Below, piece after piece: positions 49,135-56,045 of a DNA stretch of 64,000 nt. Source of the DNA: an uncultured Pseudomonadota bacterium (GTDB lineage: Bacteria > Pseudomonadota > Gammaproteobacteria > Burkholderiales > Rhodocyclaceae); contig CAJBDJ010000003.1 in NCBI GenBank assembly GCA_903951825.1, forward strand, positions 33,073 to 97,072. The letters run 5' to 3'. The position numbers and the translations under genes are program-made. The first letter of the stretch is position 1; each line of letters begins with the position of its first letter. The notes under the pieces were generated by a model that saw only the letters and a list, made by a program, of their open reading frames with translations, made no database searches and was not told the origin of the DNA.

Positions 49135-51996
49135 ATGGAAACCATCCGCATTCGTGGCGCACGCACGCACAATCTGAAGAACATCAATCTCGATCTGCCG
49201 CGCAACCAGTTGATCGTGATCACCGGTTTATCCGGCTCCGGCAAGTCCTCGCTGGCCTTCGACACCTTGTATGCCGAAGGCCAGCGCCGTTACGTCGAAT
49301 CACTGTCGGCCTATGCCCGGCAGTTTTTGCAGTTGATGGAAAAGCCGGATGTCGATCTGATTGAAGGCTTGTCGCCGGCGATTTCGATTGAGCAAAAGGC
49401 CACCTCGCATAATCCGCGTTCAACGGTAGGGACGGTGACCGAAATCCACGACTATCTGCGCCTCCTGTTTGCGCGCGCCGGGACGCCGTATTGCCCCGAT
49501 CACGACTTGCCCTTGCAGGCGCAAACCGTGTCGCAGATGGTCGATAGCGTTCTCGCACTGCCCGCCGAGACCAAGCTGATGATCCTGGCGCCGGTGGTCG
49601 CCAACCGCAAGGGCGAGCAGATGGATCTTTTTGCCGAATTGCGCGCCCAGGGATTCGCGCGCGTGCGCGTTGATGGCGCGGTGTATGAAATCGACGATGT
49701 CCCCAAACTGGCCAAAACGCAAAAACATACCGTCGATGTCGTCGTTGATCGGCTGAAGATCCGCGACGACATGCGCCAGCGCCTCGCCGAATCGTTTGAA
49801 ACCGCCTTGCGCCACGCTGAAGGACGGGCGATTGCGCTGGAGATGGACGGCGGCAAGGAGCACCTGTTTTCCGCCAAATTCGCCTGCCCGGCGTGCGCTT
49901 ACGCACTGCAGGAGCTTGAGCCGCGCCTTTTTTCCTTCAACAACCCGATGGGCGCCTGCCCGAAGTGCGACGGCCTGGGCGTCATCCAGTTCTTCGATCC
50001 CAAGCGGGTAGTCACCCACCCGGCGCAGTCGCTGGCAGGCGGCGCGGTGCGCGGCTGGGACAAAAAAAACCAGTTTTATTTCCAGATCATCGAGTCGCTG
50101 GCGGCGCACTACGATTTTTCCGTCGAGACGCCTTTCGAGCAGCTTCCCGAGACGATTCGCCAGATTGTTCTTTATGGGTCGGGACGTACCGAGATCGCTT
50201 TTCGCTACCTCAACGACAAAGGGACGCGCTTCGACCGCAGCCACGTCTTTGAGGGAATCATCCCCAACCTCGAACGGCGTTACCGGGGCAGCGATTCCAG
50301 CGCCGTGCGCGAAGAATTATCGAAATACGTCAGCAGTTCGGCCTGCCCTTCCTGCGCCGGTACGCGCTTGCGCATCGAGGCGCGCCATGTCCGCGTTGGC
50401 GAAAAAACGCTGCATGAGATCAGCCGCCTGCCGCTCGGCGAGGCACGCAATTACTTCAACTGCCTGACCCTGTCCGGCAACAAGGCGCAAGTGGCGGAAA
50501 AAATCCTGCAGGAAATCACCTCGCGGATTTCCTTCCTGATCAATGTCGGGCTCGATTATCTCTGCCTTGAGCGCTCGGCTGAAACGCTCTCGGGCGGCGA
50601 ATCGCAGCGCATCCGGCTGGCCTCGCAAATTGGCTCCGGCCTGACCGGTGTCATGTATGTTCTCGATGAGCCGTCAATCGGCCTCCATCAGCGCGATAAC
50701 GACCGCCTGCTGCACACCCTGAAAAATCTGCGCGACATGGGCAATACCGTGATCGTCGTCGAGCATGATGAAGACGCGATTCGTTCGGCCGACTACGTGG
50801 TCGACATCGGGCCGGGTGCTGGCGTGCATGGCGGCGCCATTGTCGCCGCCGGCACGGCGGCTGAAATTGCCGCCAATCCGGCGTCGATGACCGGCGACTA
50901 CCTTGCCGGACGGCGGCAGATTTCGCAGCCGAAAACGCGGCGCCCGCAAAATCCCGACAAGCGCCTGAAAGTCATCGGCGCCAGCGGCAATAACCTGCAG
51001 GACGTCACGCTGGAAATCCCCGTCGGCTTGCTGACCTGCATCACCGGCGTTTCCGGCTCCGGCAAATCAACACTGATCAACGACACCCTGTACGCCGCTG
51101 CCGCCCGCCACCTTTACGGCTCGACGACGGAGCCGACGGCTTACCGGGAGATTGTCGGTCTCGACCTCTTCGACAAGGTGATCAATGTCGATCAAGCGCC
51201 GATCGGGCGCACGCCGCGCTCCAACCCGGCCACCTACACCGGCCTGCTGACGCCGATTCGCGAACTCTTTGCCCAGGTGCCGGAAGCGCGGGCACGTGGC
51301 AACGGGCCGGGGCGTTTCAGTTTCAACGTCAAGGGCGGGCGCTGCGAGGCCTGTCAGGGCGATGGCATGATCAAGGTCGAAATGCACTTTTTGCCGGACA
51401 TTTACGTCCCCTGCGACGTTTGCCACGGCCAGCGCTACAACCGCGAAACGCTGGAGATTCAATACAAGGGCAAGACCATCCACGACCTGCTCGGGATGAC
51501 CGTCGAGCAGGCGCGCGCTTTTTTCGATGCCGTCCCGCTGATCGCACGCAAATTGCAAACCCTGGTTGATGTCGGCCTCAGCTACATCACCCTCGGCCAG
51601 AGCGCGACGACGCTCTCGGGCGGCGAAGCGCAGCGGGTCAAACTGGCGCTCGAATTGTCGAAACGCGACACCGGCCGCACCCTCTACATTCTCGACGAAC
51701 CGACTACCGGCCTGCATTTCCAGGATATCGAAATGCTCCTCTCGGTATTGCAGCGCCTGGCTTCGCACGGCAACACGTTGGTCGTCATCGAGCACAATCT
51801 CGACGTCATCAGGACAGCAGACTGGGTGGTTGACCTCGGGCCGGAAGGCGGCGCCGGCGGCGGCCGCATTCTGGTTGCCGGAACGCCGGAAGAAGTCGCC
51901 AAATGCAAGGCCAGCCACACCGGGCGCTTCCTCATGCCTTTGCTGAAACGAATGAAAGAGACTTCCCCGTCCCGAACTAGCGGCGGAACCGTATAG
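49135..51996 (+). CDS. uvrA: excinuclease ABC subunit A, with a repeat-encoded C-terminal tail
   Basis: 953 aa. [17 protein letters not shown]...[23 protein letters not shown]... The last about 15 codons (..[15 protein letters not shown]) lie in the 43-bp repeat that also occurs at 55777. Confidence 0.97.
51947..51990. repeat. copy X of a 43-44-bp direct repeat (partial attC-like element or att site)
   Basis: Copy X is AACGAATGAAAGAGACTTCCCCGTCCCGAACTAGCGGCGGAACC. Copy Y at 55777 is AACGAATGAAATGGACTTCCCCGTCCCGAATTAACGGCGGAAGC. They differ at 5 positions and lie in the same orientation. Confidence 0.85.
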
Positions 51997-52060
51997 AACA
52001 AGAACCTCACCACGCAGCGGGCGACGAGTTCAAAAAGTGCTTCGAGCACGGCTTTGAAAG

Positions 52061-52130
52061 GCCGAACGTGGAAGTCACCGGCGCTGCGCGGTTTTATCGC
52101 GCAGCGTCTGTGTTGACTGCCGGGTTAGCG
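52061..52130 (-). repeat. attC-like site a
   Basis: The + strand reads GCCGAAC...GCTGCGCG-gttttat-CGCGCAGC...GTTAGCG. The arms are an imperfect palindrome. Confidence 0.5.
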
Positions 52131-52515
52131 TCCCTTGGAGCGAAGTGTTTGCGAACGTGAAGTGGCGGGCGGGCCAAACAAAAACAGCGAACAAGGCCGC
52201 TTGAAACACGAGAAAAAACAGGAAGGGCAAATAAGCAACAGAAGCGAATGCGGTAATAGCGAAAGACACGGCGAGCAATATCCCGGCTAGCGCGCGAAAG
52301 GTAGGTTTTCTTGCGCCAGAGACAAGAGCAGGCAGGCCAACAAGAAGATTTCCTGCACCCATTGGGATGGTGTACCAGAGCGGCTTAAGAAATGCTGAAA
52401 TTGGTTGATTGTCTAGGTCACCGACAGACGCGGCGAAAGCAAAAATGAAAAGAGGCACCGATCCAATCAGAGCCAAGCCGGCCAAAAATGAGGCAATGCG
52501 CAACGTGATAATCAT
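52075..52515 (-). CDS. cassette ORF: 4-TM membrane protein of unknown function
   Basis: 146 aa, hydrophobic. The ATG lies 4 nt after the core of attC-like site b. The C-terminal about 18 codons read through attC-like site a. Confidence 0.55.
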   Translation of the reverse strand: MIITLRIASFLAGLALIGSVPLFIFAFAASVGDLDNQPISAFLKPLWYTIPMGAGNLLVGLPALVSGARKPTFRALAGILLAVSFAITAFASVAYLPFLFFLVFQAALFAVFVWPARHFTFANTSLQGTLTRQSTQTLRDKTAQRR

Positions 52516-52518
52516 GTT

Positions 52519-52582
52519 CGCTAACTAAAGTGAGCGGCCTGCGCGGCTTTCCGCGCAGGCTCGTTCGACTGCCGGGTTGGGC
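52519..52582 (-). repeat. attC-like site b
   Basis: The + strand reads CGCTAAC...CCTGCGCGG-cttt-CCGCGCAGG...GTTGGGC. On the cassette strand R'' is GCCCAAC (RYYYAAC) and R' is GTTAGCG. Confidence 0.55.
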
Positions 52583-52588
52583 GTCAGA

Positions 52589-55006: not shown

Positions 55007-55026
55007 GTATTGTTAGCCATTTGACG

Positions 55027-55752
55027 CTATTCCCGATCAACCTTTGTGCGGGCTGCCGAAATTATTTCTTTCTTTCTGGATTCGTATTCTTCATCGGAAG
55101 CAAAATCCGGAAATATGGTTGGGTGGCTAACCATAACATTAACTATGTTTCCCATGGGGATTTGCGTAAATTCTACACCTTCTAGTTTATAAATTTTCTC
55201 AGTGTAGCTTGGAAGAATTGCGCATTGCCACCTATCTCCCGTTCTGTGATCATTGCTTCGGTTGCGCTTTTGAAGGCTTGCGAACGTAAATCCAAAAGCC
55301 GCAAGTTTTTTTCTTTTTGATTGGGGGAGGTTATTAAACTCAAAAAGTTGTCTTTGGATTAGAGGAATCCATTGATCTGAAATTTTCTTTGCTTCGACTT
55401 GATCTTTGCACCTAGCGCCTTCAATTCTAAGAATTAGCTCGGCTGTGAATGCCATGGCCAGCGCGGTATCTTTTACCGATGGGGCTTGAGGATTTCCCAA
55501 TAAGGCAGAGTAGGTTACAAAATACCTACTATCCACTCCGCCAAAGGCCGTAATTCTGTCTCTAAGCCAATTCAAAGTTGCCATATACTCCTCTTCCGAT
55601 TTGGGGTTCATAGCCTCTCGGAAAAGAGAAAATTTATGCCACGTTTGCTCTTCTCTGTTTAAGGTTTCAATCTTGGAGCTTTGGGAAAAAGCAAGTGTTG
55701 GAATAACTAGAGCAATGCAGGAGATAATTTTACGATAGTGAGTGCTAGTCAT
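55027..55752 (-). CDS. cassette ORF: secreted protein of unknown function
   Basis: 241 aa with signal peptide IISCIALVIPTLAFSQS and an AGGAAG RBS. I recognise no family. Confidence 0.6.
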   Translation of the reverse strand: MTSTHYRKIISCIALVIPTLAFSQSSKIETLNREEQTWHKFSLFREAMNPKSEEEYMATLNWLRDRITAFGGVDSRYFVTYSALLGNPQAPSVKDTALAMAFTAELILRIEGARCKDQVEAKKISDQWIPLIQRQLFEFNNLPQSKRKKLAAFGFTFASLQKRNRSNDHRTGDRWQCAILPSYTEKIYKLEGVEFTQIPMGNIVNVMVSHPTIFPDFASDEEYESRKKEIISAARTKVDRE

Positions 55753-55772
55753 TTTGCTTCCTGTTTTGAGAT

Positions 55773-55875
55773 GGCTAACGAATGAAATGGACTTCCCCGT
55801 CCCGAATTAACGGCGGAAGCCGCCGGCAGCGGTTGCTGCCATGATTGAGTTTCCAGACCAAATCATTCGTTCGAC
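55773..55875 (-). repeat. attC-like site Y (long form, contains repeat copy Y)
   Basis: The + strand reads GGCTAACGAATGA...TCATTCGTTCGAC, with 9-bp perfectly complementary ends (AACGAATGA and TCATTCGTT). Internal hairpins are CGGCGG-aag-CCGCCG and GGCAGC-ggtt-GCTGCC. Confidence 0.6.
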
Positions 55876-55886
55876 AGGGGAAGTCC

Positions 55887-56045
55887 ATGAATATTGTCAC
55901 CGTTGGCATTGATCTTGCCAAGAATGTATTCGCTTTGCCTGGTGTTGACCAGAGTGGCAGGGCTGTTTTTAGCTGACCCAACCGCTGCGTCGGTGATCTG
56001 CTGGTTCACGCTGATCGCCTGCACTTGTAGCTGAGGTAAGATGCC
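55887..56045 (+). pseudogene. 5' remnant of an IS110-family transposase gene
   Basis: MNIVTVGIDLAKNVFALPGVDQSGRAVFS* matches the conserved IS110-family N-terminus (VGIDLAKxVF...GVD). After a frameshift, ...VICWFTLIACTC weakly continues the match. About 50 of roughly 340 codons remain. Confidence 0.6.

Follow-up and report, generated by a model that had tools for sequence, protein, structure and literature searches.

A relic integron cassette array between IS1111-family ends that split the uvrA stop codon of a Rhodocyclaceae bacterium

We analysed a 64,000-nucleotide stretch of contig CAJBDJ010000003.1 (hereafter the window) from an uncultured bacterium of the Rhodocyclaceae. Immediately downstream of uvrA, a low-GC insertion of 4,080 bp (51950-56029) splits the native end of that gene (…CTG AAA C^GC TGA) and carries five small genes separated by imperfect palindromes with AAC...GTT at their ends. 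We conclude that this block is probably a piece of a betaproteobacterial integron cassette array that was relocated by insertion sequences (IS) of the IS1111-attC group and is now decaying. As it stands, the locus is a CALIN, a cluster of attC sites lacking an integron integrase (the IntegronFinder category as defined in PMC12444791). It is neither a complete integron nor a family of REP repeats.

A preliminary description of this DNA, made from its letters alone, had proposed an integrase-less integron-type array, and this is borne out: the palindromes belong to an attC family found next to integron integrases and are confined to the island, three of the genes (c1, c3 and c4) recur in other arrays, and the window has no intI. 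The drop in composition that it reported is present, with GC content falling from ~0.60-0.64 around the block to 0.40-0.51 inside it, between ~52.0 and 55.9 kb, as are its five minus-strand open reading frames (ORFs). The island is flanked by uvrA (starting at 49135) on one side and by hyp191 (56054-56629) and then dgkA on the other.

The junctions of the block with uvrA can be read directly. The native part of uvrA (49135-51949, plus strand) was delimited from the ORF list, the UvrA ends of relatives and tblastn. The ORF now extends to 51996 through IS-derived sequence and the R codon of its LLKR spans the junction; tblastn matches to UvrA end at residue 284, which is this R. The closest UvrA proteins terminate in ...PLLER*, LLERR* or LLARR*, all on CGCTGA. 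The displaced native end, GC TGA, was found at 56030-56034 (plus strand), where it completes ...AAA C^GC TGA. The left junction reads TTTGCTGAAAC^GAATGAA (uvrA^IS left end) and the right junction CACTTGTA^GCTGAGGTAAG, its IS side being ...GCACTTGTA^GCTGAGGTAAG. Joining the outer flanks gives CTG AAA CGC TGA (LLKR*), in agreement with the ends of the relatives' uvrA genes. The joined site, CTGAAAC^GCTGAGGTAAG, resembles the attC target of the IS, GGCTAAC^GTAGAGCTAAC: GAGNTAA lies at the same offset in both, and GAGCTAA is matched at 6/7 positions. Within the window, CTTGTAG..GAG.TAA occurs only at the two IS/target junctions, at 54053 and 56024.

At least 12 contigs of this population are 99.98-100% identical across the block, which is therefore a fixed relic. 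The insertion has left UvrA with a foreign 15-residue C-terminal tail after LLKR, encoded by the IS left end (51950-51996). The native uvrA TGA now lies 4.08 kb downstream, at 56032-56034, and the tailed allele is fixed in all sampled contigs.

The nature of the palindromes was assessed with a covariance model. A hand-written scanner for the R-box/L-box layout was non-discriminating (11 hits versus 8.9 in shuffles), and the covariance model was therefore used instead. This model, R1, rests on 22 attC sites of the short type, all taken from metagenome contigs and none from the window, and was run over the 64 kb with filters off; it was limited to the short type because MAFFT misaligned the arms when attC types were mixed. 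R1 hit the minus strand at five sites (A, C, B, D and E), and its best match elsewhere in the 64 kb reached 15.9 bits (E 0.07). A blast search with Rhodoferax attC sites gave the same picture, with no sites outside the island. In the comparison loci, all R1 hits lie on the coding strand. The search with an attC model that had been suggested as a check on the preliminary description, for which R1 served as surrogate, does return hits.

The wider family of these sites is linked to integron integrases. We found the 23-nt hairpin of sites A and D (GCTGCGCGATAAARCCGCGCAGC) in no fewer than 120 stretches of metagenome sequence, where nearly all copies are set in one arrangement: RYYYAAC / 5 nt / L'' carrying a bulged base / hairpin / L' / 5-6 nt / GTTRRRY. 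Near-complete IntI relatives are encoded in 7 of these stretches and partial ones in others. The four relatives scanned scored 425-488 bits on TIGR02249 'integron integrase' (cut-off 265), and the integrase genes of contigs L114, L120, L132 and L177 are oriented divergently to the attC top strand. Compensatory changes in the L-boxes of the inner stem leave 91% of cells paired in the 22-sequence alignment, compared with 28-42% when the partners are slid. Taken together, the cassette relatives described below, the integrase-linked family and the independent model directly support the identity of these palindromes: they are attC sites. Two forms of the family exist among L099-L218, a short one and one with 17 additional nt; as far as the alignment goes, the added segment, CGCTCAACC-TCGCTCCCTTC-GGTCGCTGGAC, resembles a partly duplicated L'' arm.

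Seven attC sites, four of them complete and three partial, fall in a 3-kb stretch of the minus strand. Sites A, B, C and E are complete, with both cores present; D lacks its R' core; and two cut-off 5' halves retain only the R'' side. Site A (52061-52130) reads CGCTAAC-CCGGC-AGTcAAC...hairpin...GTGACT-TCCAC-GTTCGGC and is the strongest (R1 65.7 bits, E 1e-16; Rhodoferax attC blast E 7e-11; fold z = -3.4). Site C (53636-53702; GTTCAAC...GTTAGCG) scored 49.6 bits (E 7e-12), and its R' core is followed by ATT-ATG of c3. Both A and C fit the full R-box/spacer/L-box layout; site B (52519-52582; R1 37.5 bits, E 3e-8; blast E 0.012) deviates from it in a 3' spacer shortened to 3 nt. Site E (54935-55018) reads GGCTAAC-AATAC-ATTtAACC...GGTTAAT-TCGGTC-GTTGAGC (17.5 bits, E 0.025; blast E 4e-6). 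Site D (54059-54133; 22.9 bits, E 6e-4; blast E 3e-7) is of the long type, with R'' GCCCAAC, L' GGTTAGC followed by TCTAC, and a 5-nt deletion in the hairpin. Its R' core has been replaced by an IS right end, TACAAGGGCTTCCCC..., exactly as in contig L206. A further R' core, GTTAGCC (55773-55779, minus strand), is all that survives of an attC upstream of c5, and an IS left end directly adjoins this core.

Of the two cut-off sites, that at 53120-53164 is the long-type 5' part of the attC of c3 (CGCTAAC-TCGGC-GCTCGACC...GGTCGCTGG; blast E 0.015). It ends just before the hairpin and is followed directly by the ATG of c2, and a complete attC sits at this place in the c3 relatives of contigs L086, L089 and L091. 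The preliminary description had listed it as a half site, correctly. The other, at 52131-52155 (TTCGCAAAC-ACTTC-GCTCCAAGGGAC), was absent from that list. By comparison with contig L220, where the same cassette has a complete site, it is the 5' half of the attC of c1; it too ends just before the hairpin and is fused to attC A. Both truncated sites are thus cut at the same point.

The attC sites that the preliminary description had seen in the palindromes are confirmed by R1 for A, B, C, D and E, and two of its other assignments fail. What it took for one of the best examples, 55773-55875, is an IS1111-family left end followed by a stub of the transposase gene, and in its partial site at 51947-51988 another such left end, reduced to 39 nt, is fused to uvrA. 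Sites D and E are real attC sites, for which the cores it had named (AATTAAC and GTTAAAT in E; GTTAGCT, within L', in D) are inner L boxes.

The five ORFs of the island, c1 to c5, all on the minus strand and taken from the ORF list, stand in the relation to these sites that is expected of cassettes: the stops of c2-c5 fall between the inside of R'' (c3) and 8 nt before it, and c1 reads through attC A because its own truncated attC is fused to A. As had been described, the TAA of the ORF at 53159 (c3) lies inside CGCTAAC. Cassette boundaries of c1, c3 and c4 are the same in unrelated contigs, which directly supports their identity as cassettes. A relative of c1 (52075-52515, 146 aa, hydrophobic) that is 90% or more identical is part of another array, on L220, where it has a complete attC and shares the 5' boundary GTTAGCGAAC-ATG. 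We found 59 clusters of relatives for c3 (53159-53632, 157 aa), with 52-91% identity, and c3 is a widespread cassette gene. Its 5' boundary, GTTAGCGATT-ATGGAATTCCA, is identical in the window, L086 and L089 and nearly so in L091 (GTTAGAG-ATGGAATTCCAC); in these three contigs, too, the R'' core (CGCTAAC; CGCTAAT in L089) contains the stop codon, and here the attC is complete. On the chromosome of Rhodoferax antarcticus (L086), the c3 relative (82% identity) sits within a long same-strand array. Across L086, L089, L091 and L095-L098 the bounds of the cassette are always GTTAG(C/A)G...ATGGAATTCCA and CGCTAAC, and the attC bodies vary between arrays. Only two relatives of c4 (54135-54896, 253 aa) were found among 5.8e9 proteins. 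One, with 60% identity on contig L083, lies between textbook cores (...GTTAGGC upstream, TGAgGCCTAAC...GTTAGGC downstream). The cassette c5 (55027-55752, 241 aa) is an orphan, with no relative besides itself in the same set, and in c2 (52589-53119, 176 aa, hydrophobic in its N-terminal part) the 5' boundary of the cassette itself is gone.

None of the five products matched Pfam, NCBIfam, PADLOC or PHROGs, in line with the earlier view that the genes are unannotatable. The suggestion that they might serve anti-phage or stress functions found no such backing: no PADLOC defence family was hit by any of the five proteins at E <= 0.1, and an anti-phage function is unsupported by anything found here. 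On our own reading, c1 has about 4 membrane helices and c4 and c5 likely carry signal peptides. An AF2 model of c3 (pLDDT 86.9) has two membrane helices and a PH-like domain, and a fold search with it returned PH domains (E ~3e-3). The corresponding model of c4 was unusable (pLDDT 47). By sequence, c4 is distantly related to the lipase-like N-terminal domain (~170 aa) of giant RTX calcium-binding proteins, with the motif GYSLGGH; in c4 and its closest relatives (P0002, P0070 and P0071), Asp replaces the nucleophile Ser of the lipases (G-x-D-L-G/A-x-H). Downstream of attC A, a 72-nt stub (51989-52060, minus strand) is the start of a lost terminal cassette. There is no IS left-end homology beyond 51988, and the stub carries a terminator-like hairpin, GTGCTCGAAGCAC+TTTTT.

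In keeping with the preliminary description, which saw none on either flank, no tyrosine recombinase or intI is encoded in the 64 kb, and tblastn with IntI1 and three validated IntIs gave nothing below E 0.9. The nearest possible integrase thus lies >8 kb away on one side and >51 kb away on the other. No attI-like or intI remnant was found in the window, and the head of the array is occupied by the IS remnant IS_3. A promoter scan was at chance (5 sites versus 4.2 expected), as was a terminator scan. With no intI, and apparently neither attI nor a Pc promoter, the locus is probably unable to recombine on its own. An integrase acting in trans could, to judge from the sites, at most excise units between two intact attC sites. 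These could be c1 (B-A), the fused c3 and c2 (C-B), or an E-to-C segment comprising c4, attC D and an IS remnant.

We found three IS copies in the window, all of them dead remnants. Their ends have the sequence GAATGAA + ATGGACTTCCCC on the left (a 7-nt extension) and GGGGAAGCCCTT + GTA on the right (a 3-nt extension). Contig L206 carries an intact 341-aa transposase between such ends, which scored 367 bits on NF033542 'IS110 family RNA-guided transposase' and is followed by a 364-nt downstream region. Assignment to an IS110-type element with ~110 nt upstream of the transposase start was considered and dropped in favour of IS1111, given this 364-nt downstream region and the subterminal repeats. 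PMC11187229 describes the IS1111 family as having subterminal repeats, 7-nt and 3-nt extensions and, downstream of the transposase, a long non-coding region. Beyond the ends themselves, the IS sequence kept in the window amounts to codons 1 to ~29 and ~176-190 of the transposase and ~175 nt of the downstream non-coding region.

The copy next to uvrA, LE_1 (51950-51988, plus strand), consists of the first 39 nt of an IS1111-family left end (GAATGAA + the subterminal repeat AGAGACTTCCCC...), the rest having been deleted. It can be aligned to IS left ends of Cupriavidus and Aquabacterium and lies within a 42-nt direct repeat shared with 55777-55818 at 90% identity, part of the left end of the third copy (LE_3). 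Because 4/42 positions and the guide-like segment (GAACTAGC in LE_1) differ between LE_1 and LE_3, they come from two IS copies. The second remnant, RE_2 (53885-54058, plus strand), is a right end closing with GGGGAAGCCCTT + GTA and stands between the 3' spacer and R' of attC D. Its junction, ...CCCTTGTA^GTAGAGCTAACCGG, is identical to that of L206. Like the left-end pieces, the right-end sequence matches IS110-family elements carried on plasmids. An origin of 53.7-54.06 kb from a group II intron was rejected, there being no Rfam intron hit and clear homology to IS right ends. The non-coding remainder between RE_2 and attC C (53703-53884) has short matches to other integron contigs. On our own reading of a weak alignment, it is probably more of the IS non-coding region together with the tail of the cassette whose attC is C.

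The third copy, IS_3 (55780-56029, plus strand), can be read from its left end to its right-end tip as a single copy, continuous but for two internal deletions. It starts with GAATGAA + ATGGACTTCCCC..., continues through codons 1 to ~29 of the transposase (ATG at 55887) and codons ~176-190 in the same frame (55977-56018), and closes with the last ~9 nt of the right end, ...GCACTTGTA. The peptide NRCVGDLLVHADRL agrees with residues 176-190 of the L206 transposase at 11/14 positions, and 0/1000 shuffles were as good. The segment 55773-55875 is homologous to the leader and first ~30 codons of IS110-family elements of Cupriavidus, Aquabacterium and other plasmids. It looked like an attC because the IS left end folds on itself: over 55780-55888, one stem is formed by ACGAATGA and TCATTCGT, and another, spanning the start codon of the transposase gene, by ATGGACTTCCCC and GGGGAAGTCCAT. 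The Cupriavidus and Aquabacterium copies conserve the second arm of this fold. For annotation, this means that an apparent attC can in fact be an IS1111 left end, since these ends are strongly palindromic and directly follow a GCTAAC core.

The insertion specificity of these elements can be read from other contigs. In L085, L186 and L206, as at two junctions in the window, the order is RYYYAAC^IS^spacer-L' (GTAGAGCTAAC-type), with the transposase antisense to the cassettes. The insertion point is between the 3' spacer and the GTT of the attC R' core. The flank at the R' core beside c5, RYYYAAC^GAATGAA, agrees with those of L085, L186 and L206. Guide-like words in the region downstream of the transposase follow the flanks of each element: that of L206 (2895-3259) holds TTAGCTC and CTAACG, matching its attC target, and a C. 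taiwanensis element with a different target has a correspondingly different word, GGAAAGT. Such variable words, tracking the flanks, are as expected for a guide RNA judging from these sequences. For the guide-like words of the window's own right-end remnant, no convincing alignment was obtained.

These properties match published ones. Some IS1111-family members target one end of attC sites, and for this IS1111-attC group (ISPst6, ISKpn4, ISPa21, ISPa25) PMC11187229 cites Tetu & Holmes 2008 and Post & Hall 2009. The same paper shows by experiment that an IS1111-family element carries along cargo inserted 50 bp within it. Invasion of arrays by IS1111-attC elements is documented in the literature.

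From this evidence we infer the following order of events. The array would not have been built at uvrA by an integrase. IS1111-attC elements, whose transposase takes its guide from an IS-encoded RNA (seekRNA, or bridge RNA), enter attC sites at the point and in the orientation described above. At uvrA, the outermost left and right IS ends of the block abut the two halves of the stop region, CTGAAAC^GCTGAGGTAAG. Because they do so, and because this site is near-cognate to the attC target, the block most likely arrived as IS-bounded cargo. Two routes could have brought it there: a composite element may have moved by its outer left end and outer right end, or an IS-flanked cassette segment may have recombined into an IS already present at the near-cognate uvrA site. 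The two are indistinguishable from the data here. Later deletions would have removed every transposase gene. The uvrA site before insertion would be expected to read ...CTGAAACGCTGAGGTAAGATGCC.

Several observations weigh against this account. It must assume three separate deletions. The right-end tip at 56029 comprises only ~9 nt of IS sequence, its subterminal repeat being gone, and the last 60 nt before it are not significantly like true right ends. Neither an empty-site allele nor an intact IS at uvrA was found among the population contigs, and the nearest genomes do not share synteny downstream of uvrA. Among the matches listed by a UvrA C-terminus search covering one genome per species, none came from this species and none from a relative that keeps the gene order beyond uvrA. 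On the side of attC, R1 covers one attC family as a surrogate for the IntegronFinder model, and it scores D and E weakly, at 22.9 and 17.5 bits. The guide-target analysis draws on short words in the downstream regions of three elements (L206, L084 and L085).

The preliminary description had left open whether the array was a CALIN or a decapitated chromosomal integron. The first term applies; decapitation in place is less likely, since the block lies between IS ends that split the uvrA stop. An integron assembled beside uvrA by its own integrase, which then lost intI and attI on the hyp191 side and was afterwards invaded by IS, would have had its intI, by the attC orientation in L114, L120, L132 and L177, just where the IS_3 remnant lies. 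Degenerate IS1111-attC footprints, reported by Tetu and Holmes in 2008 to be frequent at the ends of Pseudomonas chromosomal arrays, would also fit it. We nevertheless regard this as unlikely. Both outer junctions are IS ends abutting halves of the uvrA stop, which leaves no room for a platform outside the block, and IS_3 is one continuous copy between its left end and right-end tip. In addition, no trace of attI or intI was found in the window, and the closest available genomes have nothing like the array after uvrA. This last result also answers the synteny comparison that had been proposed as a check, as these genomes do not share the region.

We consider it very improbable that a trans-acting integrase placed the cassettes at the uvrA 3' end, by recombination of attC with a secondary GTT site (attG), and that the IS pieces are incidental. 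The left flank does end in AAC, which is GTT on the cassette strand, and off-target integration at attG sites is mentioned in PMC12444791. A cassette circle would, however, leave an attC at one end and only TTRRRY at the other, whereas uvrA is here fused to the outermost 39 nt of an IS left end and the other junction is the right-end tip of an IS. Least credible of all is that the palindromes are a genome-wide REP/BIME-like family unrelated to integrons, with ordinary accessory genes between them. They are indeed imperfect palindromes of 60-90 nt between genes, and the IS1111-family member ISPa11 targets REP sequences (PMC11187229). Nevertheless, no copy occurs outside 52-55 kb in the 64-kb window, and the check for a REP family that had been proposed comes out negative across the window. 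Moreover, the family adjoins TIGR02249 integrases, always lies on the coding strand of the cassettes, and has cores that coincide with gene boundaries in unrelated contigs. Within the window, the REP/BIME reading is effectively refuted.

The locus can be set beside known systems. Like other CALINs, it has at least 2 close attC sites, ORFs in one orientation that are each followed by an attC, no intI nearby, mostly cassettes of unknown function and a GC content below that of the host. Unlike them, it lies between IS1111-family ends that split a host stop codon, which makes its provenance readable, and several of its sites are truncated or interrupted, leaving at most part of it mobilisable. With the IS1111-attC group, its IS remnants share the subterminal inverted repeat, the 7-nt and 3-nt extensions and fixed-orientation insertion at one end of attC sites, and their intact relative in L206 also shows the long non-coding region that follows the transposase; the likeness to ISPst6 and ISKpn4 is one of described features. 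By contrast with that group, the copies in the window are dead, and one pair of ends flanks a near-cognate site that is not an attC, with cassettes between.

The sedentary chromosomal arrays of Betaproteobacteria, represented by that of Rhodoferax antarcticus (CP019240.1), share with the window the attC family, the cassette c3 (at 82%) and invasion by mobile elements that target attC sites. The window differs in keeping only ~3.8 kb of array, in having no toxin-antitoxin cassettes and in showing no platform. In the R. antarcticus locus (L086, 446253-466726), the array contains toxin-antitoxin cassettes (HicAB, HigBA, ParE and BrnT), a DDE transposase and two reverse-transcriptase genes of group II introns in antisense orientation, and it ends in an IS91-like element preceded by a short tyrosine-recombinase fragment. 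No intI was found within the 20 kb of this array that were examined.

It is possible, though on balance somewhat doubtful, that IS1111-attC elements carry multi-cassette segments between their outer ends to near-cognate sites that are not attC, as here to the uvrA stop. If true, CALINs would have a concrete way of forming at a distance from any integron platform. In the literature searched, from which the key papers of 2008 and 2009 fell outside, we found no report of a cassette segment enclosed by IS1111-attC ends at a non-attC site. Orphan attC clusters are common among bacteria: about half of Xanthomonas genomes carry one away from the platform (PMC12444791), and no proposed origin for such clusters was found in the literature searched. 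The junction sequence kept at this locus suffices to read its history. If general, the arrangement would link the integrase, through attC, with a guide-RNA-directed IS110/IS1111 transposase and would suggest a way for cassettes to escape from the platform.

Other features of the window and its relatives were recorded alongside. Rfam scans of the window at gathering and permissive thresholds returned nothing relevant, and no tRNA genes were found in the 64 kb. Beyond the block, hyp191 has no Pfam or NCBIfam family and no relative adjoining uvrA in any genome retrieved, and its stop overlaps the start of dgkA (ATGA at 56626-56629). One comparison contig labelled as an Actinomycetota metagenome-assembled genome (L003, JBLNBI010000416.1) encodes ssb-MFS-uvrA products 69-86% identical to those of the betaproteobacterial window, and given this identity it is probably mis-binned. 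In a UvrD-like helicase gene further downstream (58569-61982), a 36-nt tandem duplication (AAEAAWSMRSEQ twice, ~58800-58870) varies within the population: with a single copy of the repeat, contigs L002 and L092 encode a product of 1125 aa rather than 1137 aa.

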